In this document: positions 4,667-48,067 of the stretch, in pieces
Numbering within the stretch: the first letter of the stretch is position 1
How the letters are laid out: each line of letters starts with the position of its first letter
IMG/VR virus record: IMGVR_UViG_3300011114_000575
Coordinates: 1-52,885 of that record
Source: a virus
Taxonomy: Duplodnaviria; Caudoviricetes
Direction: 5' to 3' (one strand)
Length of the DNA stretch: 52,885 bases
Notes under the pieces: model-generated
Told to the model about the DNA's origin: nothing
The model's database searches: none
Seen by the model: only the letters and a program-made list of their open reading frames with translations
Position numbers and translations under genes: made by a program

Positions 4667-6484
4667 TTACGGGCGTCCCCGTGTGTGCTGACGACCGGGC
4701 AGCGCGGCGTGGCGAGTGAGGGATAAGGCGTGGTCGACAACGGAACCGCCACCCATTGGCAGACCAATTTCTGCCATGGCCTGGGCGAGAGGATGGTTGT
4801 GGGCAGGGTCTTCAATGGCACCGCCGGTAGCAGCATGGCGCATGGCGTTGATAACGTCTTGGTGCGTCGTCTGTTCGTCGCCGACCTTGTCCCAAACAGC
4901 ATGGTGGGTAAGGTGCTGGTAGTATGGCTCCATGCCCTCAGGCGTTTTCAAGCCCATAGCCTCCTGCCGGGCAGCAAGGCGGTCGACAGCTTCACTGCCG
5001 GCGCGTGCGAGGGGTTTCTTGGCCTCTGAGGTAGGATTGCCGGTGTGCAGGACAATCTGACGCGCATCGAGCGTAGGCTGGTCTCCACGTCCAAGTAGAG
5101 ACCCCATAAACCCAGCCTTTGCGCTGCCGATGCCATGAACGCCACCAATAAAATTGCGCCACTCTTCGGGACTGCTTTTGCTCTGCATCGCACGAGCAAC
5201 CATATCAGACACAGCTTTCGCATGCTGAGGAAGGTTTTGGGCTGCCCACGGAAGTGCCTTTGCTTCAGTAGACAGACCAAATACCTTCATGACATTGGCA
5301 GCGTCTGCAATGGATTCGTGGTCGACAATACCCTGCTCGGCGGCGTCAAGATAACGGCGCCCCATAGGAGAATGCAGCCACTCACCAAAAGCCCCTTCAG
5401 GACGAACGCTGCCATTAAAATCATGAGGAATTGGCACGCCCGACGCGCGAGCCTTATCAGCAGACCTAGATTCGCGCTGAATGCTGGATCGAGTGATTGT
5501 ATATGCCTTAATGAGGTCGCGAGGGGTTAAGCCATGCGTTGCGGCCCGACGCGCTGTCTCATCCATGAACTGGCCAAAGTTGACAACATGCGACGGGATT
5601 TCGCGTAAATCCCCAAGCTGTTCCTGCACTTCGCCAAGGGGTCGCCAATCCCATCCAGCCATCTTGCGGCTTTCAGGGTCTTTGTAGGCCTCGCCTCCAT
5701 CCGCACGATGAATGCGACCACCACGGGCGGCAGCATCACTATCACCATAACCACCGCCAAGGGGGCCGGCAGCGGCAGCGGCAGCGGCTGCCATCTCGGC
5801 GGTGCCGCCGGTCGGAGCCCCACCGCCATTAGGGTGCCAACGGTCCCCACTGCCACCCTGGCCTTCCTCAAGAGGATTGTCTGGGAGATTGTAGGAGGAC
5901 GCATTGAACGTCGGCGCGGGGATGGACGGGCCGATGTATTTCGATTCCAGAGGCTTACTTGACCCCGTGTAGGTGGTGGGGCGCGACGCCAGTATAGCCG
6001 CCATAGTGGCCTTGGACGGGGCGAGGTTCAGCGTTTCAGGCGACGGCAGGCCGGTGAAGGCGCCAGCAGCCGGGGCGAAGTTGATGGGGGCGCCAGTGGC
6101 CGAAGCAAAGCCAGCAGGACTGCCACCAAACGCATAGCCGCCACGGTTCATCATCTTGAGGGCGCGGTCGACAACGTTGCCGTGATCCCCCGCCACCCAC
6201 GCATCAGGCGTCTGGTGATAGACGGACATCCAATCATCATGCAGCTTGCTCGGCGCGATGCCATGCTCATGGCTAATGCGCTTCATGATGCCATCAATAG
6301 CCGCATACTGCGTGCGCCCCTTCATGCTTCGCAGTTCATCGCGATGCATCTTCAGGAGGTGTTTTAGTTCTGCAACGGCAGGATTGTGCGGCGTGTGCTT
6401 TGTAATGTTACCACGATTAGGTAAATTCTTGTGGCGAGCAACATGAAGCGCCGCACGGGCGGCTTTCTTGGGATCAGCGGTCAC
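4667..6484 (-). CDS. Multidomain virion-associated protein with an HhH-GPD DNA-glycosylase-like domain
   Basis: 605 aa, stop/start overlap with portal; VHGIGSAKAGFMGSLLGRGDQPTLDAR resembles the HhH plus catalytic Asp region, and HHAVWD is C-terminal; xAxGG motifs flank the domain. Confidence 0.6.
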   Translation of the reverse strand: MTADPKKAARAALHVARHKNLPNRGNITKHTPHNPAVAELKHLLKMHRDELRSMKGRTQYAAIDGIMKRISHEHGIAPSKLHDDWMSVYHQTPDAWVAGDHGNVVDRALKMMNRGGYAFGGSPAGFASATGAPINFAPAAGAFTGLPSPETLNLAPSKATMAAILASRPTTYTGSSKPLESKYIGPSIPAPTFNASSYNLPDNPLEEGQGGSGDRWHPNGGGAPTGGTAEMAAAAAAAAGPLGGGYGDSDAAARGGRIHRADGGEAYKDPESRKMAGWDWRPLGEVQEQLGDLREIPSHVVNFGQFMDETARRAATHGLTPRDLIKAYTITRSSIQRESRSADKARASGVPIPHDFNGSVRPEGAFGEWLHSPMGRRYLDAAEQGIVDHESIADAANVMKVFGLSTEAKALPWAAQNLPQHAKAVSDMVARAMQSKSSPEEWRNFIGGVHGIGSAKAGFMGSLLGRGDQPTLDARQIVLHTGNPTSEAKKPLARAGSEAVDRLAARQEAMGLKTPEGMEPYYQHLTHHAVWDKVGDEQTTHQDVINAMRHAATGGAIEDPAHNHPLAQAMAEIGLPMGGGSVVDHALSLTRHAALPGRQHTRGRP

Positions 6485-8820
6485 TGCACGCCTCCGGGAG
6501 CGCGAGGGTTGCCCAGGCCGGGCAGAGGGCGTCGCCTGGAGGCGTCCAAGGCAGCCTGACGGCTCTGCACGCTCTCAAACGACGGACGCACCAGAGGCTC
6601 TACCAGAGCGGCGCTGTAGGGATGCACAGCGAGGTTCTGGGCGAGGTCCACAAGCTGAATGCGTTCCTTGGCCAGCTTGTCGTCCAACTGCGCGTCAACC
6701 TGCTCACCGGCAATACTGGCGTCGGTCTCGACCTTGTGCGCATCAAGCTGCGCCTTGGCCACGCCCAGGTGCGCGTCGGTCGACAGCTTCTGCATACCAA
6801 TCTGGATATCGGCCTGCGCCTTCTGCGCCTTCGTCTGGGCGTCCAGCATGCGCGCCTGCGCCGTGATGTCCTTCGCCTTGGCGTCGGCCTGCATCTTCAT
6901 CATCTCAGGCGGCGGCGCACCCTGCGCATTCGGCGGCGCCATGAACTGCGACGGATTGCTCCAGCCAATCGCCTGAAGGGCGGCAGTATCAACGGCAATC
7001 GGATCGTAGAGGCCGGGCTGGGCGGCCTGTAGCTGCTTCAGGGCCATGATCTTCATGAGGCGCTGCGCATGCGACGCGGTGTTGGGATCGGCCTGGGGCG
7101 TCAACTCATAGTTATTAAGGGCTTGCAGGAAGACCTGCTCATCCCACGGGTAAGCCGGCGCCCTGTTCCTCTGCCAAAAGCTCTCAGGATTGTCGCGGAA
7201 GCACTTAATAAGTAACCGGAACTCCTGCGCCTGAGCGGCATGCATGCGCTTGTGAACGCTATTGAGAATCTTGGCGGCCTGCTCGATCATGGCCAACGTC
7301 GTGCCGACTGGCGCGTCAGCGCGACCCTCGCCCGTCTGCATCTCGGACACGCCGCCAATGCGCTGCCCGGTCTGGGCGATGTTTTCAACCAACGACATCA
7401 GCGCAGGAGACGGGTCTTTGTAGGGCAGTGGCATGATCGCCTGATTGATCGGCAACCCGCCCGTCTTGACCAACGCGCCACCACCCGGCGGCACGCGGAA
7501 GATGTTGGTATTTTGGCGGGCGCCAACATCCGACATCAGGAAGCCGGGGAAGTTGGCATACATGCCGGCATCGAGCAGTTCACGCCACGCGGCTGTGATG
7601 GCGTTCGTCGTGTTGCCCAAAATATGCAGCAAACCAATGTCATAAAAACCAAAGCCGGGAATGAACGTATACTTGACGAACGTTTCCTTGGCTTCGGGCA
7701 GTTCGCTTTGGTCTTTGTCGTAATTCCTAGTGATAGAAAGAATGTTCTTGGACGATACATCAATCGTCACCCGATAAGGAATCTCAAGACCGCTCTGCTT
7801 GCCCTTGTGCTTGTGTTCAAAGCCCAGGATATCGAGTTCGCAGTAGCACTCGTAGATTTCGCGGTCACGGTCCTCTGGGCGATGGGCATCAACGCTAATG
7901 CCTTCAACGTCCTTCTTTTCTTGATCGAGCGAGTTTGTCTTTGCGGCGCTGGGCGTGCTGAGGTTGATATCCTGATAGACGCCCAGAATTTGCAGGCGCT
8001 TCACTGTGCTAGGCTTCATGTATACGCGATGCGTAATACGCTTGGCGTTTGCAAGATCAGTGGCGGTATTGTTTACGATCAAATCGTTGGCGTCTACGGT
8101 TTCGCTCACGGGGCGATTGCGTAGAGGGCAGTAATACACCTTCTTAAACTGCGTCCCTCCAAAGCCCAGCATCAACAGCATGCGGTCAGTGTCGGGGTAG
8201 TATTCGCTGGCAGTCACGGTCAGGTAGTGGTTGAGGTCACGCTCAAGGGCGTCGGCCAGACGGTCCTCAGCGGCCGTGGCGTCGTTGTCGTCGTTCCTGA
8301 TCTTGACCGGCCCGTCAGTCGGAAGGAGTTCGGCGCGGGCATTGGCCTGGAAGCGCAGGACCGCCTCCAGCAGCAGAGGGTGACGAACGCGGCTGATGCC
8401 TTCGACCGGCGCGCCGTCTGCGCTGCCGCCAAGGCCAGGAATGTCCAGCTTCAGGCCGAGCAGGCGCACGCCATTGGCGCGATCCTCAACCCAGTCCTTG
8501 CGGCTGTCGATGTCGGCCTCGATGCTGCGGACGAGGTCGTCGGCAATGCGCGACAACTCTACAGCCTCAATGTCGTCAACGAGGTTGTCGAACCATCCAC
8601 GCGGACCACGCGATGCCGCGCTCTCCAGAGGGCTGCCGTCGATGGAGACGGTGACGCTGCCGTCGCCATGCTCAATCGACAAGATGTTGCCTTTGGCGTC
8701 GGTCATGCCCTGGTCTGGCGCGTCCTCCGCGACCTCCACCATGATGTCGCCCTCCAGCAACTCAGCTTGAGGCGGGGCGGGCTGCCGCAGAGACGGGCTC
8801 AAACCAGGGACGAGCGGCAT
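6481..8820 (-). CDS. Portal protein
   Basis: 779 aa downstream of terL; HPLLLEAVLRFQA...ELLP..GPVK, FKKVYY, PGFGFYDIG and GTTLAMIEQ motifs; Gln/Ala-rich C-terminal barrel. Confidence 0.9.
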   Translation of the reverse strand: MPLVPGLSPSLRQPAPPQAELLEGDIMVEVAEDAPDQGMTDAKGNILSIEHGDGSVTVSIDGSPLESAASRGPRGWFDNLVDDIEAVELSRIADDLVRSIEADIDSRKDWVEDRANGVRLLGLKLDIPGLGGSADGAPVEGISRVRHPLLLEAVLRFQANARAELLPTDGPVKIRNDDNDATAAEDRLADALERDLNHYLTVTASEYYPDTDRMLLMLGFGGTQFKKVYYCPLRNRPVSETVDANDLIVNNTATDLANAKRITHRVYMKPSTVKRLQILGVYQDINLSTPSAAKTNSLDQEKKDVEGISVDAHRPEDRDREIYECYCELDILGFEHKHKGKQSGLEIPYRVTIDVSSKNILSITRNYDKDQSELPEAKETFVKYTFIPGFGFYDIGLLHILGNTTNAITAAWRELLDAGMYANFPGFLMSDVGARQNTNIFRVPPGGGALVKTGGLPINQAIMPLPYKDPSPALMSLVENIAQTGQRIGGVSEMQTGEGRADAPVGTTLAMIEQAAKILNSVHKRMHAAQAQEFRLLIKCFRDNPESFWQRNRAPAYPWDEQVFLQALNNYELTPQADPNTASHAQRLMKIMALKQLQAAQPGLYDPIAVDTAALQAIGWSNPSQFMAPPNAQGAPPPEMMKMQADAKAKDITAQARMLDAQTKAQKAQADIQIGMQKLSTDAHLGVAKAQLDAHKVETDASIAGEQVDAQLDDKLAKERIQLVDLAQNLAVHPYSAALVEPLVRPSFESVQSRQAALDASRRRPLPGLGNPRAPGGVQ

Positions 8821-33049: not shown

Positions 33050-36000
33050 TTAAACAGGAGGTTCAATTCTTTTTCCGTTATGCCACCACTGCCCTGTAGA
33101 TGGGCTATACTGCGCCCCCGCAGGCGCCCAAGAAGGCCTAGAAGGAATTGCACTTCTCTCAGACGGCGATTGAGAAGAATACATGGTATTATACAAAGGC
33201 TGACTCATGTCAAAAGCATTAACGCTGTCAAGCGCTGTATAGTAATCCCCTCTAGGAGAATTTTTAACAACATCAAACTTCTCAATTTCATGCTGGGCGC
33301 GCTTTTGAATTACGTTTTTAAGCAGGAAAAGCGCACCTTCTCTGGTCATCGCAGAACCTGGAGAGGTTCCTTGAGCCGCATTCCATTGCGCAAGAAGTTG
33401 CCTTCCTGCTGGAGTTTCAATTTTCCCCAACTCAGCCGTCATCATATTTCTCATTTTATCTATGACGTCAACTTTTGCTGGATCAGTAAATGCATCACTA
33501 ATCCAAGAGGGGAAACCAAATTGCCTCAAAGTGCCAGCTAAATATTTTAACCTTTCAGCTTGCGGCCCCATAGAAGGAGATGTGCCAGGGGATTGGATGG
33601 TGTTAATCATCAACTCAGCTTGCTGCTGGAGCGCCCTAGCTGCCCTTGCTTCATCTGCGGAAGAAGAATACAACTCACGGAACATTTTCCCCTGCTCAAG
33701 TTTTGCAGCGCCTTGAAGCTGCAACGCATTAGAAAGTTCCGCCCTAACGTCATTAGCTTCTTGTTCTATTGCAGCTTTTGCTTCTGGAGTTATTGCTGTT
33801 CTGGTCCTGGCAGTTAGAGTTTGTAATTTTTGATTGGCAGCAGCAACATCGTCATCAAATTGAGTTTTGATGGTGGGGGCTGCGGGGGGTTGAGGCTGCG
33901 CTTGTGGAGTTCCGCTAGTCCTGCGACCTGCCGCTGCACCACTTTCAAAAGAAGCCATTGCATCCGCAAGTTTACCAACAACTTGAGGATTCTTGAAATC
34001 AATCTGGTCTGTTGGCTTTATGCCAAGTTGAGAGGAAACGTTGGAAATGTAATTTGCAACGCTACGCTGATCCTCTTCATATTTTGGATGACCGGGCTTG
34101 TATTCAGAAGCCCACCGAGAGACAATCTGTTGAGGCGTCACAAGGCCATTGTTTGCATAATTCTGCAAAAGAGAAATTTGCGCATTTCGACCGTCTTCAG
34201 GTGTCTTAAAAACAGCAAAGCCATTTTCAGAGCCAGCGTATCCAGGCATATTTTTGGCAAATTGCCCGTCCTTGATCGCTCCTTGATTGTTTGTCCTGAC
34301 AGTCAGAGGAGTGCCAGCCCCACTTGGGGAGGCAGCAGGCCCTTGGGGAGCAGTAGGTGCGCCACCAAGGATAGTGGCTGCACCCTTGTCTGCGCCGAAC
34401 ATAGAAAGGGCGTTTTGATAAATTGAGTTCATCTGCTGGGGAGTGTAAGTTCTCCCGTCAAGCAGGCTTGTGTAGCCAACAATGTTATTGTTTTCATCAG
34501 TTTGAGGCTTGTAATTACCCCTAATAAATTCCATGGTTTTATTTGTAGCTTCGGCCATCCTAATTTGCATGGCTTGCGGCATAAGGGCGGTTTCAGTCGC
34601 GATCTTTTCACGCTGAACCATTTGATTCTGCACGTTCCCGTAGGCGCCAGCGGCACCGGCGAGGCCCTGAGCAAAGGCCGACCCCAGGTAGCGGCTAGGC
34701 GACGCCGCCATGGTGCCGACGCCAGTCAGAAGGGGGACAAGCCAGTCCTGGTTACGAGAGAACCAACTTCCCTTGGACCCTTCATCCGGCTTTTCAGGAG
34801 CGGGCGAAGGCGTGGGAACGGCCCCAAGGCCGGCTTGCTGGACGTTCTGGCTTACGGGGGCAGAAGCCACAACGTTAGGTGTTTCAGACTGGGCAAGAGA
34901 CGCTCCTGGTGGCAGGGCGCGCGCTTCAACCTGTTGTGCAGGCGCAACCCCGCCACCAGGGCGAGAGATTACAGCAGGTGCGCTTGCGGGCGCTGCGAGA
35001 GGCTGTTCGCTAGCCTGCTGAGGCGCATAAGGTTCTGTCCCGGATGCTAGGCCAGGGGCAGGCCCTTCCGTCTGTCTAGCCTGCGCAGCCGGCGCATAAC
35101 GACCGCCAGGATTTGTCATCACATTATTTAGAAAATCTTGGTTGGCAATTCCAAGGGCGCGCTGGGTATCGGTGCCGGAACCCTGCGAAGAAGGCGAAGG
35201 GGTCGCCCCAAGGCCAGTTTGCGGGGGAATGATTGCACTAGCTGCGCTACGGACGGCGGGGGATTGGTCTGCTCCCGCCCTTTCATCAGGTTGCAAATCT
35301 CGAATTTGCTGCGGCGCATAAAGACCGCCAGGATTGGCCATCACATTATTTAGAAAACCTTGGTTGGCAATCCCAAGCGCGCGCTGAGTGTCAACGTGCA
35401 GCCCGTCTGCATTGGCCCCTTGCGCCGAAACCGGAGGCGCAGAACGCGCACCAGCATCACGGCCAGAGTTTACATTAAATCTATCAAGATTATGAAATAC
35501 ACTAGATGGGTCAGAAAGATTAGAGTTGTAGTTGCCGTAAAAATTATCAATTTGAGGATCATCAGTGTCTACTCCAGGCAGACCACCATAAGCAAAGTGA
35601 CCACGATGTGCAGCACCTTCGGTAGCGCGCCCGTAGTCAACAGTCTTATATCCTCCAGCAAGACCAACAGCCTCAGGATGCTTGTGCTCAACGTCCTGCG
35701 CGATTAAACCAATCTGTGTTTCGGGATGACCCTTGTAGTTGTAGCGATAAACCGGCTGACCATCAAAGGTCTTGCCAATCTGATGGATGTTTTCCTTCAG
35801 ACGCTTGTCAGAAAAAAGAGAAGCAAGACCTGCTGCGCCCTCAAAAAAAGTCTTGCCTGCACCAACAAGGCCGGCGACCTTCGTAAGGTCGTTTCCAAGA
35901 CCACCAGACTGCCCAGAACCAGCCTGCTCAGGCTTAGGGGGATTGATAATGGGCTTTTGATTGGGAATGTTTAGGGAGAAAGTTTCCTTGTCAGGGTCGT

Positions 36001-37867
36001 TGTAAGGATTGACATCCTCATTGTTCACGCGACCATCTGTGGCGTAACCCCTGATTGCGCCGCCATGCGCTGCACCAAAAATATTCCTAACGGATGCCAG
36101 ATACCCTTTGCCTGTGTCCCAATCGCCGCCAGCGCCAAGAATCCCCTTGCTGGCTGCGGTCTTATCCGTAGCGGCGGAACCCACAAGAGCGGACTGGGCT
36201 GCTCCGGCCAATCCCTTGGCGGCCTCTACCTGCTTGGCAAAATTAATAACTTCTTTGTCACGGGGGTGCTGATCCGGCGGAGGAGAAGCAACAGCCAAAC
36301 GCCCAGACGGCATGCTGCTTTGCGTCGGGATGTTCAGACCCTGCCCCTGACCACCAAGGCCAGCGCCAATTTGCCCCTTGCGGGCATTAGCCAAAATATG
36401 GGCAAAATAGTCTGGCATGCCACCTTCGGCAAAACCTTCGCCAGCGCGCTCCGGCACAACGCCACCACCCATAGACGCGCCACCATAGGCGAAGTGCCCA
36501 CGATGCGCAGCGTCCTCAGTGGCGCGGTCGTAGTCCACAGTCTTATAGCCGCCAGCAACGCCAACAGCCTCAGGGTGCTTGCGCTCAACGTCCTGCGCAA
36601 TCAACCCAATCTGAGTGCCACGCTGCCCCTTGTAGTTGTAGCGGTAGATCGGCTGCCCATCGAAGGTCTCACCAACCTGATGAACATTCTCCTTGAGGCG
36701 CTTGTCAGAGAAGAACGAAGCAGGCTGCGTCGTTGTTGTCGTAGAGCCCGACTGGGAGCCAGTCCCCAGGGCAATGTTGGCAAGGAACTGCGCCACCTGG
36801 AATGGGTAGCCCTGCTGCTGGAGGAACTGATTATAGAGGGCAGTGTTCTGTGCCTGCTGCGTCTGCTGCTCCTGCGTTCCGGCAGCCAACTGCGCCGAGG
36901 CACCCTGCAAGGCGGCGCCCTGTGCGCCAGTGCCGAGGGCAGCAAGGTTCTGAGCCGTCTTCTCGCCCATGCCGTAGACGCCCTGGCCCAGGCCAGCAAT
37001 CTGCTGCCCCGCCGCCAAGCCCTGCCCGAACTGCTGCTGCCCCAGGCCGGCTAGCTGACCGGCCGTGGCGGCGCCCTGACCAAACTGCTGCTGGCCAATG
37101 CCCATCATCTGACCGGCGCCAGCCTGCAAGGCGGCACGATTGGCCTGCTGCGCCCCAAGGCCAACGCCCTGCTGCTGCTGCGCCGTCCCAAGCGCCTGCC
37201 CGTAGCCGGTATTGTAGAGGTTCGCGAGGGTCTGCTGATTGGCGAGGTTCTGCTTATAGGCAAGGTTGGCCGCCGCGACGCCAGACCGATCACCACCAAA
37301 TGCACCAGACTTAATAGCGTCGCTGGTAAGCTGCGACTGCTGCTCCTGGTTCTGCTGGTTCATCGCCTGCATGGTCGCGCCGACCACGTTGTTGAGGTAT
37401 GGCGACATATACTGGTTGATTGCAGCCTGCCCCAGGTAGGTTGGGTTCACGGCCTGCGTGCCTGCTGCGGCTAGGCCAGTGGCGGCCTGATTGTAGGGCT
37501 GTGCGGCGGCTTGAGCGCCCTGTAGCGCCCCATACGACTCCTGGCCAAGCTGCGCACCCAGGCCATAGGCGCCGCCATACACGTCCATCGCGGCGCCGTA
37601 GTAGGGGGTCGCGGCCTGCTGGCCTTGCAGGAGGGATTCGGTAGCGCCCGTGAAGTAGGGTTGGGCCTGCCCGGCGGCCTGATTGACGTTGGCAATCGCA
37701 GCGTTCTGCGTGCTGGTCATCGGCGCCACAAACTGCCCCTGGTAGGGCTGGTAGGGCGTCTGCGCGACATCGGAGGCATACTTATTGACGGCGTTGTATC
37801 TCGCCATAACCTCCGGCGGGATTTGAACGCTGGAGGTCGAAGTCGAGGTCTTGCCGCCGCCGCTCAT
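33050..37867 (-). CDS. Large ejection polyprotein with two internal peptidase S74 domains and a lysozyme-like domain
   Basis: 1605 aa; Gln-rich N-terminus; SDKRLK...GLIAQDVE..HPEAV...VDY twice; RTNNQGAI...FAVFKTPEDG...IVSRWA cell-wall-hydrolase-like region at about 33940-34305. Confidence 0.8.
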   Translation of the reverse strand: MSGGGKTSTSTSSVQIPPEVMARYNAVNKYASDVAQTPYQPYQGQFVAPMTSTQNAAIANVNQAAGQAQPYFTGATESLLQGQQAATPYYGAAMDVYGGAYGLGAQLGQESYGALQGAQAAAQPYNQAATGLAAAGTQAVNPTYLGQAAINQYMSPYLNNVVGATMQAMNQQNQEQQSQLTSDAIKSGAFGGDRSGVAAANLAYKQNLANQQTLANLYNTGYGQALGTAQQQQGVGLGAQQANRAALQAGAGQMMGIGQQQFGQGAATAGQLAGLGQQQFGQGLAAGQQIAGLGQGVYGMGEKTAQNLAALGTGAQGAALQGASAQLAAGTQEQQTQQAQNTALYNQFLQQQGYPFQVAQFLANIALGTGSQSGSTTTTTQPASFFSDKRLKENVHQVGETFDGQPIYRYNYKGQRGTQIGLIAQDVERKHPEAVGVAGGYKTVDYDRATEDAAHRGHFAYGGASMGGGVVPERAGEGFAEGGMPDYFAHILANARKGQIGAGLGGQGQGLNIPTQSSMPSGRLAVASPPPDQHPRDKEVINFAKQVEAAKGLAGAAQSALVGSAATDKTAASKGILGAGGDWDTGKGYLASVRNIFGAAHGGAIRGYATDGRVNNEDVNPYNDPDKETFSLNIPNQKPIINPPKPEQAGSGQSGGLGNDLTKVAGLVGAGKTFFEGAAGLASLFSDKRLKENIHQIGKTFDGQPVYRYNYKGHPETQIGLIAQDVEHKHPEAVGLAGGYKTVDYGRATEGAAHRGHFAYGGLPGVDTDDPQIDNFYGNYNSNLSDPSSVFHNLDRFNVNSGRDAGARSAPPVSAQGANADGLHVDTQRALGIANQGFLNNVMANPGGLYAPQQIRDLQPDERAGADQSPAVRSAASAIIPPQTGLGATPSPSSQGSGTDTQRALGIANQDFLNNVMTNPGGRYAPAAQARQTEGPAPGLASGTEPYAPQQASEQPLAAPASAPAVISRPGGGVAPAQQVEARALPPGASLAQSETPNVVASAPVSQNVQQAGLGAVPTPSPAPEKPDEGSKGSWFSRNQDWLVPLLTGVGTMAASPSRYLGSAFAQGLAGAAGAYGNVQNQMVQREKIATETALMPQAMQIRMAEATNKTMEFIRGNYKPQTDENNNIVGYTSLLDGRTYTPQQMNSIYQNALSMFGADKGAATILGGAPTAPQGPAASPSGAGTPLTVRTNNQGAIKDGQFAKNMPGYAGSENGFAVFKTPEDGRNAQISLLQNYANNGLVTPQQIVSRWASEYKPGHPKYEEDQRSVANYISNVSSQLGIKPTDQIDFKNPQVVGKLADAMASFESGAAAGRRTSGTPQAQPQPPAAPTIKTQFDDDVAAANQKLQTLTARTRTAITPEAKAAIEQEANDVRAELSNALQLQGAAKLEQGKMFRELYSSSADEARAARALQQQAELMINTIQSPGTSPSMGPQAERLKYLAGTLRQFGFPSWISDAFTDPAKVDVIDKMRNMMTAELGKIETPAGRQLLAQWNAAQGTSPGSAMTREGALFLLKNVIQKRAQHEIEKFDVVKNSPRGDYYTALDSVNAFDMSQPLYNTMYSSQSPSERSAIPSRPSWAPAGAQYSPSTGQWWHNGKRIEPPV
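35582..36712. repeat. Duplicated 234-bp S74 module
   Basis: Copies at 36479-36712 and 35582-35815; near-identical protein with many synonymous changes. Confidence 0.9.
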
Positions 37868-38355
37868 CTAGGATGATCCTTCAACAACTTCGTCGTCGCC
37901 CCGTAGAGGAAGAAAGCTCCCGTGGGCTCTCCGAACTTCCTCTTATAAAGCCTGACCTTGGCTTCTGTCCGATTGTTGCTCAATACACCGATAATCAACG
38001 GAATGCCAAGGCTATCAGATACCTCTTTCGCAAAGTCGCAAAGCTTCCCGGCCCGGCCACCCTTGGCGCTCCTGTATTCCGGGTGAACGAAGATCGCCTT
38101 CTCTTCAATGACATCCTGGTCAGAATACCACATCTTGCCGGTTCGCAGGAGAATGGCGGCTTCAAGCTTTTGCCCAGGCTCGCCAATAACGCCCATGATG
38201 CCATGGTCGTTGTTTAACGCTGGCCAGATATCACCAAGAAGTTTCGTCGGGTTGGGGTCAACGAATCCATTTTCATCAGTAGCCATCATGGCTAATTCCA
38301 TAACCGCGTCAACGTCGGCAGGAGTTCCAATACGAATCTTGATGTCTTCAGACAT
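37864..38355 (-). CDS. GNAT-fold acyltransferase-like protein
   Basis: IRIGTPADV start, EKAIFVHPEYRS..GGRAGKL acetyl-CoA-binding-like motif, RLYKRKFG. Confidence 0.7.
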   Translation of the reverse strand: MSEDIKIRIGTPADVDAVMELAMMATDENGFVDPNPTKLLGDIWPALNNDHGIMGVIGEPGQKLEAAILLRTGKMWYSDQDVIEEKAIFVHPEYRSAKGGRAGKLCDFAKEVSDSLGIPLIIGVLSNNRTEAKVRLYKRKFGEPTGAFFLYGATTKLLKDHPR

Positions 38356-42772: not shown

Positions 42773-43513
42773 TTACCTCCCTGGCGTGGCCACGACGGCG
42801 GGGCTCATGGAAGACCAGCCGCCAGCTTCGAACTTCTTGCGGAACTCCTCCACCGTGGCGCCCTTGACGAGAGCCTGATACTGGCTTTCGTAAGACACGG
42901 CCATGGCAGGGTCGTCGCTTTGGCGACCAAAGTTCCGCTGATATGCGGAGATATAGATCATGCTGGCCATGATAAACAAACTTGGCAGATTTTGACTAAT
43001 AAATGTCGTGGGAACAGTAGCCGAAAGTGAGGGCGGGCGATACGTCCCAATAATTTCCAAGGTATACGGGCCATCAGGGAATGGCGCGATCAAAAAAGTA
43101 TTGAGTGTCTGGGTTGTCGGTGTTGTGCCGGTGCTGCTTTGGCTTTGAGGCGCAAAGTAGCTGGGTGTGGCCGTGTAGGTGGCACTTGGATAGTTGATGT
43201 TGATGAACTCTTTTGTCGTCGGCAGCATAGGAACCCGCGTCCCGGAATCAGGCGACACGGTCCCATAGGGAGTGATGGCGTTGATCTCCTGGACAGTCAC
43301 AAACTGAGGGAACGTCACCGACCGAGTGCCAGTCGGAATCGTCTGCGTGGCCGTTGTCACCGTCGCCAGGAGGTCTAAGTCCCTGTAAATCCTCAGTTCG
43401 GCGTAATCAATCATTGCCGGCAGGATGGTTAGGAAGTTAGGATCAGTCGGGGAGACGACAGCCATCTCGGCGATCTGGGTCTGGTAGCTTGAATAGGTTA
43501 GGCCGGTCGTCAT
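42773..43513 (-). CDS. Head-tail adaptor / tail tubular protein A-like
   Basis: IDYAELRIYRDL...IAPFPDGPY..EI motifs; upstream of the nozzle. Confidence 0.7.
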   Translation of the reverse strand: MTTGLTYSSYQTQIAEMAVVSPTDPNFLTILPAMIDYAELRIYRDLDLLATVTTATQTIPTGTRSVTFPQFVTVQEINAITPYGTVSPDSGTRVPMLPTTKEFININYPSATYTATPSYFAPQSQSSTGTTPTTQTLNTFLIAPFPDGPYTLEIIGTYRPPSLSATVPTTFISQNLPSLFIMASMIYISAYQRNFGRQSDDPAMAVSYESQYQALVKGATVEEFRKKFEAGGWSSMSPAVVATPGR

Positions 43514-43619: not shown

Positions 43620-43985
43620 TTACTCTACAACCTCAAGAGTCCTATCATTGCTTACCGCAACGGTAGCGCGAACTGACCTATTTTGAATGATACAGCCATT
43701 GCTGGCCGTGCGATTCATAGACGTGTTGTCGCCATGGATTAGGAAACCATCACGCCCAAAAGTATCAGTCCCCTTCATGGGCGTAAGACGCATTGTCATA
43801 GGGCCTGCCTTGGGATGCGTGAACGCAACACCAATGCTATAAAGCCCACGAGGAATAGGTCCAACATCACGAATAGCTTGAGCCTCAGGGTTATTCACCC
43901 CATTGCCACAACCAGCATACCCAGAGCCCACGACCTTGTCGTTATAAGACAGATTGCCTGTCTTTTGCGAATATTTCCACGTCAC
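43620..43985 (-). CDS. Tlde1/DUF2778-like L,D-transpeptidase-fold protein, candidate endolysin
   Basis: GPIPRGLYSI, GRDGFLIHGD...ASNGCII catalytic His/Cys motif; adjacent to the holin. Confidence 0.8.
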   Translation of the reverse strand: MTWKYSQKTGNLSYNDKVVGSGYAGCGNGVNNPEAQAIRDVGPIPRGLYSIGVAFTHPKAGPMTMRLTPMKGTDTFGRDGFLIHGDNTSMNRTASNGCIIQNRSVRATVAVSNDRTLEVVE

Positions 43986-44410
43986 TTGGACACCCCCTTG
44001 ACCTTCTCGATGGTGCGAGACGCGCTATACCCAAGGAAACAGAATCCAAACATCTGCCACATGGTCTCAGGAATGGCCGCAAGCCACTTTTGAAGACCAA
44101 TGGCAATCAGGTCGGCATGCTTGGGGGTGATGCCATACAAAATTCCCATGGGGATGCTGCCCAACATGAGAATATACATGACATACATGAAGCTAGGACG
44201 TGCGCGAGAGGTCCACTTATCAGAAGAATTGGCCTCCGCAAGCATGACGCTCATCTGCTGCTGAAGATTTGCCAGCGCAGCGTCAGCGTTTGCCTTGATA
44301 ATCATAGCCTGTGCTGCGGCCGTCTCCGTTGGATTCGGCCAAATCTTGTTGATGGCGTCATCAATTAGCTTTGAGGCATTAGAGATAGCGTCATCAATGC
44401 CGAATGCCAT
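43982..44410 (-). CDS. Holin (3-TM gene-transfer-agent type)
   Basis: AEANS..WTSRARP..MY, hydrophobic helices, LGYSASRTIEKVKG C-terminus. Confidence 0.8.
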   Translation of the reverse strand: MAFGIDDAISNASKLIDDAINKIWPNPTETAAAQAMIIKANADAALANLQQQMSVMLAEANSSDKWTSRARPSFMYVMYILMLGSIPMGILYGITPKHADLIAIGLQKWLAAIPETMWQMFGFCFLGYSASRTIEKVKGVSK

Positions 44411-47374: not shown

Positions 47375-48067
47375 TTACGGCCTGTAATAGCCTGCAAGCT
47401 GGGGGGAAATGTATTGCTGTGCAGTTTCTACGTTTTGTTCCGCCGCAATACGGTAGGACTCATCCGCCTGCGCCTTAAGCCCAGGCGCCATAGGAGGATT
47501 CCAAATCTTAGCCAAACGATAAGCCAAACCATCTCCAAAGGCTTCAAGCCAAAGGTAGGGGATATCGAGCGTCTGACCGTTTGTAAAGTTAGCATCCTCA
47601 ATGCGGCGCACTCGATAGTATTTCAGATATTGCGCGCTGCTGCCATCAGGAACAGGCCAAAGAGTGACACTAGGGGAAATCAGCCTGTCAAGCCAATATA
47701 CCGTAGTAAACCCCTGTTGCTCCTTATTAGGATACGTGGAGTATTCCGAGCGGCTAATAGGAAGAATGATGCGGTCGGTAGATGTTGAACCACTGACGGT
47801 TGTCACATAAGCATCAAGAATAATAACCGTGCTTTGGTCAACCGAATAAGTAGACTGCCCCTGCACAAGCGGAACCGTCACAAGGTCAACCTTCCACAGG
47901 TTGACGCCCTGGTTAGCCCAGCGTGCCAGCATGAGATTGGTTGCCATCTTCGCAGAATGCATATGCTCCTGCAGGAGCGCAGTGTTGCGAACGCCAGCAA
48001 CATTGAACGCATACAGGACCAATTCGCCAAGCGATGGATTGAATGCGTATGTGCCGGAAGAAGTCAT
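47375..48067 (-). CDS. Head completion / adaptor protein
   Basis: NLMLARWANQGVNLW, ISRSEY..YPNK, LWPVPD and GLAYRLA. Confidence 0.7.
   Translation of the reverse strand: MTSSGTYAFNPSLGELVLYAFNVAGVRNTALLQEHMHSAKMATNLMLARWANQGVNLWKVDLVTVPLVQGQSTYSVDQSTVIILDAYVTTVSGSTSTDRIILPISRSEYSTYPNKEQQGFTTVYWLDRLISPSVTLWPVPDGSSAQYLKYYRVRRIEDANFTNGQTLDIPYLWLEAFGDGLAYRLAKIWNPPMAPGLKAQADESYRIAAEQNVETAQQYISPQLAGYYRP

Follow-up and report, generated by a model that had tools for sequence, protein, structure and literature searches.

Little is understood about the ejection proteins that short-tailed phages use, and each of them is the product of its own gene in the systems examined to date. S74 chaperone domains normally lie at the C terminus of the protein that they chaperone, and in tail fibres they are discarded after cutting. 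A long open reading frame (ORF) in a window of 52,885 nt, which is the whole stretch of viral DNA analysed here (IMG/VR record IMGVR_UViG_3300011114_000575), raises the question of what two S74 domains do in the interior of a protein that appears to be of the ejection type. We propose that this ORF of an uncultured podophage probably encodes a self-cutting precursor of ejection proteins, which trimer-dependent S74 cleavage would divide into three pieces (Table 1).

Table 1. Coordinates of the ORF, its domains and predicted pieces, and the gene directly upstream
Feature	Position in window	Strand	Details
Putative precursor ORF of ejection or internal virion proteins	33050..37867	(-)	1605 aa, 167.6 kDa
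Putative piece A, aa 1-386, 39.2 kDa: conserved N-terminal domain, predicted long alpha-helical rod	36710..37867	(-)	
18-aa repeats within piece A, aa 244-333	36869..37138	(-)	Autocorrelation, DNA repeat D2
Mini-S74 domain 1, Ser387-Gly463	36479..36709	(-)	Predicted cut Phe386/Ser387
S74-1 dyad codons Ser387; Lys392	36707-36709; 36692-36694	(-)	Read from DNA
Gly/Ala-rich linker, aa 464-685	35813..36478	(-)	By composition
Putative piece B (S74-1 plus linker), aa 387-685, 30.8 kDa			
Mini-S74 domain 2, Ser686-Gly762	35582..35812	(-)	Predicted cut Phe685/Ser686
S74-2 dyad codons Ser686; Lys691	35810-35812; 35795-35797	(-)	Read from DNA
Putative piece C, aa 686-1605, 97.5 kDa, starting with S74-2			
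Remainder of piece C: Pro/Ala-rich spacer, conserved Gly-rich motif, muralytic domain, C-terminal domain	33053..35581	(-)	
Peptidoglycan-hydrolase-like domain, aa 1185-1369	33761..34315	(-)	PHROG and tblastn matches
GNAT-type acetyltransferase gene, directly upstream of the ORF	37864..38355	(-)	phrog_1249; weak PF13508 match

The original prediction described a motif block that occurs twice in the 1605-aa protein, 897 bp apart, and read both occurrences as internal S74 domains with intact Ser-x4-Lys dyads. Consistent with this, a direct DNA repeat of 243 nt (35583-35825 and 36480-36722; 80-81% identical) has a start-to-start distance of 897 nt, and Pfam PF13884 matches the protein in two stretches (E = 3e-19, 69.5 bits). 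A six-frame PF13884 search of the record placed these at 36563-36709 (41.6 bits, E = 9e-12) and 35666-35812 (39.7 bits, E = 4e-11), both above the 22-bit cut-off. The likeness between the copies breaks off right after RGHFAYGG in each, giving two domains of 77 aa that lie well inside the chain, and both dyads were recovered when read back from the DNA. When a profile of the family's S74 domains was compared with solved chaperones, it matched 6f45 (1.1e-4), MyRF 7dc3 (1.4e-3) and phi29 gp12 3gud (4.6e-3); Ser387 aligns with residue 1 of the released 3gud chain and with the mutated S587 of MyRF. Solved S74 chaperone domains are intertwined trimers. An AF2 model of the domain, compared as a monomer with 48,161 chains, gave weak structural matches (Z 4.3-3.1, rmsd 4.9-6.5 over 64-70 residues), the best four of which (7dc3, 3gw6, 3gud and 4uw8) are all known chaperones; Foldseek likewise ranked 7dc3 first, again weakly for a monomer model (E = 0.15). 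Taken together, these data identify both as genuine S74 (intramolecular chaperone, ICA) domains with intact dyads.

Over 80 aligned codons the two copies share 68 identical residues and, as had been predicted, many of their differences are synonymous (34 against 13 non-synonymous; dS 1.35, dN 0.074, dN/dS 0.055). Both copies are therefore under strong purifying selection. An assembly chimera or a chance likeness is an exceedingly improbable source of the duplication. None of the listed contigs from other runs (Logan contigs, which are short) covers the two copies together. However, identical bases run in register between the copies for 17 nt at most, and the region is tiled by contigs from four other runs, with each copy attached to its own unique flanks (a 710-nt piece from run X2, of the same study as the possible source, covers 36282-36991). 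Each copy also reaches its own Pfam E-value as given above, and two domains recur in other, independently assembled proteins. Misassembly is thus excluded for the S74 duplication.

The family comprises at least 1749 proteins at E <= 1e-3, and 475 stretches of it were confirmed in IMG/VR. Among 121 proteins (the query and the best 120 of the 1749 relatives), two S74 matches are present in 118, the exceptions with a single match being P0016, P0022 and P0101. In all 80 IMG/VR loci the same N-terminal domain is succeeded by an S74 domain, beyond which the ORF always runs on; the 58 complete ORFs, 42 with one S74 and 16 with two, have no fewer than 666 aa downstream of their last S74. An internal position is therefore the rule in this family. 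The catalytic residues are equally constant, with Ser, Asp+1 and Lys+5 invariant in 118 first and 117 second copies; the second copy of P0097, which the motif pattern missed, reads SDRGLK and likewise keeps Ser and Lys, and SDxxxK is found in 99 of 99 S74 domains of the 80 wider IMG/VR relatives. A tree of both copies (235 tips) requires four changes of label, so that copy 1 and copy 2 form largely separate lineages. We found no cultured member: a genome scan yielded 18 loci, all in metagenome-assembled genomes (MAGs) whose labels point to Sphingomonadaceae, Caulobacteraceae or betaproteobacteria as candidate hosts, and a phage collection yielded the metagenomic record MW202675 only. Among the 120 shorter relatives listed, none could be confirmed as a genuine gene ending at an S74 boundary; in most, the sequence is truncated by a contig end or finishes in a frameshift- or adaptor-like tail. 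Two of the shorter proteins, P0162 (663 aa, on a 63-kb contig) and P0196, stop ahead of the second-S74 position. A full-text literature search found no paper linking S74 to ejection proteins, and this fused layout, common to many environmental phages, is not yet described.

The assignment of the host protein to the ejection type, also part of the original prediction, is supported by its muralytic domain and by its place in the genome. Residues 1190-1311 resemble residues 6-115 of gp16 of Citrobacter phage SH5 and of many T7-like phages (tblastn, 30-33% identity, E down to 1e-7), and the domain matches phrog_873 (E = 5.5e-17) and phrog_7182, 'tail injection transglycosylase'. Pfam SLT has no match in the 1605-aa protein, and relatives carry PF01464, PF05838 or PF18013. 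By tblastn there is no similarity to gp16 beyond this muralytic domain, which forms roughly the first 115 residues of gp16. The ORF sits in a tail and ejection module whose gene order is conserved and which includes SU10-type adaptor and nozzle-like genes, the portal and adaptor of the podophage are of the SU10 type, and an acetyltransferase gene lies upstream of the ORF in 78 of 80 loci. Searches with the whole protein returned no matches in the PDB or NCBIfam, and hydropathy revealed no transmembrane helix (best 19-aa window 1.09). The locus thus shares with T7 (gp14, gp15 and gp16) and SU10 (gp20-24) a muralytic domain like the N terminus of gp16, a tail or ejection gene block and, with SU10, the portal and adaptor type; by contrast, the T7 and SU10 ejectosomes are made from separate genes, with no self-cleavage reported. 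A review of the subject (PMC8954989) nowhere uses the terms polyprotein, proteoly-, fusion or fused.

In support of a fusion, three cultured podophages carry the same mini-S74 domain among the same neighbours, arranged in the same order, but with each segment in a gene of its own; whether such relatives exist was a check named in the original prediction. In Brucella phage Tb, an acyltransferase (gp22) is followed by gp23, a 328-aa virion structural protein that ends 7 residues past VDY, then by gp24 and gp25 (729 aa, Phage_lysozyme2). Sulfitobacter phage NYA-2014a has an acyltransferase, the 326-aa S74-ended SUFP_020 and a 644-aa peptidoglycan hydrolase, and Bradyrhizobium phage ppBeUSDA76-2 has the 367-aa S74-ended WAX24423 (phrog_4287, 'DNA ejection protein') followed by proteins of 496 aa and 561 aa (the latter phrog_26400, 'DNA ejection protein'). 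In all three, S74 stands at the very C terminus of a protein of 326-367 aa and the downstream functions lie in separate genes; the closest annotated families of these S74-ended proteins are phrog_6121 ('virion structural protein') and phrog_4287. Their mini-S74 domains align with the family at hhalign probabilities of 99.1-99.8. S74 alone aligned when the N-terminal profile and aa 464-770 were compared with the three stand-alone proteins by hhalign, and BLASTP found no similarity between the 1605-aa protein and Tb gp25 or between the acetyltransferases of the window and phage Tb. Because homology is not detectable outside S74, it is gene order and domain type that carry the argument for fused versus split genes.

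The same stand-alone proteins bear on a further proposal, that a cut or dock at the GG ending each copy would complete the processing. GG is present in 82 of 86 domains and the RGHF-type motif in 25 of 86, and the stand-alone proteins end 1-8 residues past VDYxK, ahead of any such motif; the motif is therefore part of the Gly-rich linker and not of the catalytic core. We accordingly rejected GG as a second cleavage site. The linker (aa 464-685) has no PHROG family match and differs in length among relatives.

The description of the host as a non-fibre protein did not hold either. The 386 residues before Ser387 are predicted to form very long helices (69-136, 147-186 and 194-370, pLDDT about 55-75; the N-terminal model has a mean pLDDT of 68, a modest confidence), with an autocorrelation of 0.40 at lag 18 and a spacing of 54 nt in the DNA repeat. 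The number of 18-aa repeats differs among relatives in 36-aa steps, such that the first-S74 Ser falls at 384/387 + n x 36 in 108 of 118. Piece A is thus predicted to be a fibre-like helical rod of 18-aa repeats, and a rod-like segment is the usual kind of substrate for an S74 chaperone. Its N-terminal domain is kept in 80 of 80 IMG/VR loci. Piece A has no family match in PHROG or Pfam; Foldseek with a model of residues 1-460 found generic coiled coils only in the PDB (best E = 3.4e-3), a profile of the same residues matched the PDB in its S74 part only, and aa 1-386 retrieved unnamed viral clusters from the ESM Atlas, besides a P22_gp7 cluster whose score of 0.86 is too low to count.

Such a rod could instead be external, a trimeric needle or central fibre of the tail, in which case the ORF would be a precursor of a needle and a tail lysin, S74 would do its classic job and the pieces would go to different places in the virion. 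Beyond the predicted rod of variable repeat number, this is suggested by the absence of another obvious needle gene among those recognised in the window, and by the NCBI name of relatives, 'tail fiber domain-containing protein' (others are labelled 'internal virion protein D' or 'hypothetical protein', and in UniProt relatives of 1329 and 1487 aa bear only the automatic 'Intramolecular chaperone auto-processing domain containing protein'). In SU10, which this phage matches in its portal and adaptor families, a trimeric coiled-coil needle measures 260 A, but it is encoded apart from the five ejection proteins, each of which has its own gene (PMC9509320). The homology searches with piece A also failed to point to a needle, and the families closest to the S74-ended proteins are named for virion structure and DNA ejection. 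We consider an external needle unlikely.

Comparison with known S74 proteins indicates how a self-cutting precursor could work. The domains share with those of K1F endosialidase (3gw6), phi29 gp12 (3gud) and T5 pb1 (4uw8) the Pfam family, the Ser-x4-Lys dyad beginning at the first residue and, as far as the weak structural matches of the model indicate, the beta core, and as in these fibres they come after an elongated, presumably trimeric segment. They differ in being internal, in occurring twice, in measuring 77 aa only and in having 666-1140 more residues downstream, so that they would not be discarded as a free fragment; moreover, the host protein has a muralytic ejection-type domain and no receptor-binding one. 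They also lack the long C-terminal helix. In the model, the beta core is followed by short helices only (model residues 66-76; residues 78-97 have pLDDT <50) and in the sequence by a Gly-rich stretch without a helix of the MyRF alpha4 type, whereas the classic fibre S74 of one family locus (L009) goes on as a helix-like stretch.

The one studied case of an internal S74 found in our literature search is eukaryotic MYRF (MyRF; 7dc3), which has S74/ICA in mid-protein and is the best structural match of the S74 model. In MyRF, an S587/K592 dyad cuts between P586 and S587, and does so only in the trimer; trimerisation is driven mainly by a triple coiled coil that the C-terminal helix forms, and mutating this helix blocks cleavage (PMC8326128). 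The cut, which depends on the trimer, releases the N-terminal part, and the domain remains with the C-terminal part (PMC8326128 and PMC3742443). MyRF differs in being a eukaryotic transcription factor with one domain, a beta-helical stalk upstream and the C-terminal triple coiled coil, and the helix that its cleavage needs is missing from the phage domains, an observation that counts against cleavage.

To our knowledge, the only activity of S74 domains is trimer-dependent self-cleavage. In the self-cutting precursor that we favour, three chains would join and each mini-S74 would form a trimeric intramolecular-chaperone cutter, in which Ser387 or Ser686, activated by the Lys five residues on, would attack the bond directly before it. 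The two cuts would yield three equimolar pieces of about 39, 31 and 98 kDa: A, the rod; B, the first S74 with the linker; and C, the second S74 with the spacer, the gp16-like domain and the C-terminal domain. Unlike in tail fibres, each S74 would stay as the N-terminal end of the next piece, and the pieces would be packaged in the head and ejected. We infer self-cleavage from conservation and from comparison with known systems.

Alternatively, the S74 domains might serve only as knots for trimerisation and folding, with the 168-kDa chain left uncut or cut once and packaged as an intact trimer. The missing counterpart of the coiled coil required by MyRF would fit this, as would the second copies of four loci (L035, L043, L070 and L073), in which S74 is truncated and lacks the YKTVDY strand, and the looser constraint on the residue preceding the catalytic Ser in copy 2 (Phe in 57 of 117, against 111 of 118 first copies). 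However, a pure scaffold would have no need of Ser and Lys, so their invariance in all copies examined points to dyads kept for catalysis, and in the stand-alone relatives the same mini-domain occupies the very C terminus, the classic cleaving position. On this evidence a purely structural role seems improbable.

Virion-borne muralytic proteins that cut themselves have precedents. In lysins of the Tal2009 type, cleavage occurs at a glycine-rich site and an S74 domain is absent. Tal2009 of lactococcal phage Tuc2009 and ORF56 of phage K, self-cutting proteins treated in PMC3207973, are unrelated to the present protein and come from siphophages and myophages.

Taken together, S74 identity, the ejection type, the split relatives and the sound assembly stand from the original prediction, whereas the non-fibre description and the GG cut do not. 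A large environmental family would thus fuse ejection proteins in one ORF, with S74 marking the joints, and this reading corrects the database names of relatives. If the cuts occur, the family would be the first example from viruses of S74 processing that is both internal and in tandem; the cuts would offer a simple route to a fixed stoichiometry of ejected proteins, and would mark well-defined, predictable limits at which pieces of a 168-kDa protein, otherwise intractable, could be expressed. More tentatively, and with considerable doubt, one gene might encode a complete three-fold ejection device, in which the S74 domains would cut and then cap the N termini of B and C as trimers, fixing a 3:3:3 ratio, and piece A would be a straight rod, adjustable in length by 36 residues at a time (two 18-aa repeats, about 5 nm), that would serve as an envelope-spanning conduit or ruler matched to the host envelope. 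Such a device, if true, would offer a trimeric alternative, derived from a polyprotein, to the ejectosomes that T7, P22, N4 and SU10 build from several genes.

The ORF product is matched twice by Peptidase_S74 in Pfam (PF13884; E 3e-19), at Ser387–Gly463 (S74-1) and Ser686–Gly762 (S74-2). In a six-frame scan of the record the copies score 41.6 and 39.7 bits (cut-off 22 bits), and reading the DNA confirmed both catalytic dyads (Ser387/Lys392 and Ser686/Lys691), which bears out the internal S74 pair of the original prediction. At the nucleotide level the pair is a direct repeat of 243 nt (81% identity, spacing 897 nt), and the likeness stops directly past ...RGHFAYGG in both copies. Comparison of 80 codons shows 68 identical residues and counts 34 synonymous and 13 non-synonymous differences; the resulting dS of 1.35 and dN/dS of 0.055 indicate that both copies are old and each under strong purifying selection.

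An assembly artefact was considered and rejected, because the longest run of identical bases common to both copies is 17 and because an HMM made from the two copies found two S74 matches in 118 of 121 proteins (the query and the best 120 of 1,749 relatives at E ≤ 1e-3, from 7,998 candidates scored), with a single match in the relatives P0016, P0022 and P0101. The stretch is also tiled by contigs from four other sequencing runs, one of them from the same study as the possible source, in which each copy is attached to its own flanks; none of these contigs reaches across both copies. Contigs from other runs bridge 185–343 nt of the inter-S74 linker, in keeping with the variation of linker length among relatives.

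With an alignment of aa 1–460 as probe, IMG/VR gave 603 matched stretches, 475 of which encode a relative. Among the best 80 of these 475, S74 lies directly behind the N-terminal domain in every case, and all 99 S74 domains carry SDxxxK. Fifty-eight of the 80 ORFs are complete (1,220–1,860 aa stop to stop; one S74 in 42, two in 16), and the last S74 is trailed by at least 666 aa in all 58. All 118 first and 117 second copies of the closer set keep Ser, Asp+1 and Lys+5, and the P0097 copy left out by the search pattern reads SDRGLK. On a tree of the 235 domains the label 'first' or 'second' switches only four times, with 93 second copies forming one clade (support 0.96); copy–copy likeness is 73–80% in the window's own clade against a family median of 65%. 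An internal S74 is thus the rule in this family, and carrying two in tandem is an ancient trait of a sub-family. The family occupies 18 loci in the genome collection, all in MAGs; no cultured member was found, and relatives in UniProt/BFVD bear automatic names only. Short Gly-rich linear motifs recur in the linkers of many relatives and downstream of their S74 domains, with the pattern GG, hydrophobic residue, x, P and, some residues later, G-[YF]-A-x-GG.

Features of the window around and within the ORF
Feature	Position	Strand	Details
SU10-type portal	6481-8820		
ORF	33050-37867	minus	1605 aa
Gly/Ala-rich motif	34643-34723		aa 1049-1075; GVGTMAASPSRYLGSA...
Second repeat pair	35090-35170 and 35312-35392		81 nt, 90% identity, 222 nt apart
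S74 direct repeat	35583-35825 and 36480-36722		
Linker bridged by other-run contigs	35826-36270		
Gly-rich motifs	36428-36478 and ~36030-36070		
18-aa repeats	36869-37138		aa 244-333
Small GNAT-type acetyltransferase gene	37864-38355	minus	directly upstream of ORF
SU10-adaptor-like genes	42773-43513 and 47375-48067	minus	E 3e-15 and 1.5e-9
Lysis-type pair (GTA_holin_3TM and Tlde1/YkuD-like gene)	43620-44410	minus	

The record is linear with an estimated completeness of 91% (IMG/VR), and also encodes an Sf6-like small terminase and a Prim-Pol/AAA_25 replication protein. Two different genes match the SU10 adaptor family, and the lysis-type pair sits amid structural genes, with an adaptor on one side and tail genes on the other. 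Gene order around the ORF is conserved among the 80 IMG/VR relatives (adaptor at 73 loci, a nozzle-like 685-aa protein at 75, a 210-aa protein at 76 and the acetyltransferase at 78). The metagenomic GenBank entry MW202675 has the same pair: its acetyltransferase precedes a 1,185-aa 'internal virion protein D' that shares the N-terminal domain and carries one S74 plus an SLT-like stretch.

The original prediction had asked whether relatives encode the segments as separate genes, and they do. In three cultured phages a small virion protein ends in the same mini-S74, the gene boundary falling at the S74 position, and the functions that are fused in the ORF follow in genes of their own. Brucella phage Tb encodes an acyl-CoA N-acyltransferase (gp22), a 328-aa 'virion structural protein' ending ...VDYSKVK (gp23), a 138-aa protein (gp24) and a 729-aa Phage_lysozyme2 protein (gp25), whose tail end matches a family 'released from the phage upon host infection'. 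The cassette of Sulfitobacter phage NYA-2014a comprises a phrog_4470 acyltransferase, an S74-ended protein of 326 aa and a 644-aa peptidoglycan hydrolase; Bradyrhizobium phage ppBeUSDA76-2 has a 124-aa protein, an S74-ended protein of 367 aa (phrog_4287, 'DNA ejection protein'), a 496-aa protein and a 561-aa protein (phrog_26400, 'DNA ejection protein'). The acyl-CoA N-acyltransferase (phrog_4470) of split-cassette phages stands where the window has its acetyltransferase. In hhalign, S74 aligned with all three stand-alone proteins (probability 99.1–99.8), whereas their upstream parts gave no alignment to the ORF family, and BLAST found no similarity between the window's acetyltransferase and that of Tb. 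The correspondence thus lies in cassette order and domain type and falls short of full orthology.

When a model of S74 alone (pLDDT 79, core > 90) was compared with 48,161 chains, the four known chaperone structures ranked on top: 7dc3 (myelin regulatory factor, MyRF; Z 4.3), 3gw6 (endosialidase; 3.8), 3gud (phi29 gp12; 3.7) and 4uw8 (T5 pb1; 3.1), a specific but weak signal. The sequence profile matches 6f45, 7dc3, 3gud, 8jov and 8hqz. As the released chain of 3gud begins with a Ser aligned to Ser387, the cut is expected directly before the Ser. Passages of PMC8326128 describe the MyRF C-terminal helix as a triple coiled coil that is the chief driver of trimerisation, its mutation blocking cleavage; by contrast, no long C-terminal helix was seen in model or sequence of the mini-S74, which is Gly-rich and predicted disordered past the beta core. 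In this family, trimer contacts may come from the upstream rod. A further cut or dock had been proposed at the GG of FAYGG. Although 82 of the 86 domains have a GG 68–85 residues past the Ser, a second cut there is unsupported, because just 25 contain the RGHF-type motif, stand-alone proteins end ahead of it and the region is predicted to be disordered.

Piece A (aa 1–386) had been taken for part of a 'non-fibre' protein. An AF2 model of aa 1–460 (48-row alignment, mean pLDDT 68) predicts helices at 69–136, 147–186 and 194–370, then a beta-rich S74 (pLDDT ~85), and repeats of 18 aa are present in the helical part (autocorrelation 0.40 at lag 18). Among 118 Met-starting relatives, 108 have their first catalytic Ser at 384/387 + n × 36, up to residue 1180, so that the length of the predicted rod is quantised. 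The helices, repeats and length steps together argue that piece A is a rod of adjustable length and against the 'non-fibre' label. Neither aa 1–386 nor aa 464–684 matched a PHROG family. A 521-aa BFVD protein named 'Hint' (A0A8S5UY86; rank 13) resembles the aa 1–460 model (Foldseek E 8e-6, 18% identity) and, as a lead only, could carry a rod of this kind ahead of a self-cleaving domain of another type.

In piece C (aa 686–1605), aa 1190–1311 share 30–33% identity with the gp16 (internal virion protein D) found in T7-like phages, the matched segment in Citrobacter phage SH5 being aa 6–115, the muralytic N-terminus; PHROG families 873 and 7182 ('tail injection transglycosylase') concur. This part is common as a separate protein (1,768 matches to aa 1001–1605, many in proteins 550–650 aa long). 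The second repeat pair encodes two copies of a ~27-aa motif in the Pro/Ala-rich spacer. A moderately hydrophobic Gly/Ala-rich motif, possibly a membrane-active segment, hardly changes in distant relatives, among them the MW202675 protein and P0176.

In the proposed processing, three precursor chains would come together and each mini-S74 trimer would break the bond before its own Ser, yielding A (39.2 kDa; rod), B (aa 387–685; 30.8 kDa; S74-1 and linker) and C (97.5 kDa; S74-2, spacer, muralytic domain and C-terminal domain). Each S74 would stay on the N-terminus of the following piece, as in MyRF. Trimerisation, packaging, ejection and the key step, cleavage, are what we infer; we consider self-processing of the ORF somewhat favoured. 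In SU10, passages of PMC9509320 describe five separate ejection proteins (gp20–24; gp20 is a transglycosylase) and a trimeric needle distinct from them. Our search of full-text literature (main texts) found no paper linking S74 to ejection, internal-virion, pilot or injection proteins, and the words 'polyprotein', 'proteoly-', 'fusion' and 'fused' are absent from the ejection-protein review PMC8954989. The observation behind the original prediction therefore stands and its interpretation survives in part, with the separate-gene relatives but without the GG cut or the non-fibre assignment. The architecture is real, widespread and undescribed, and every one of its parts is already known.
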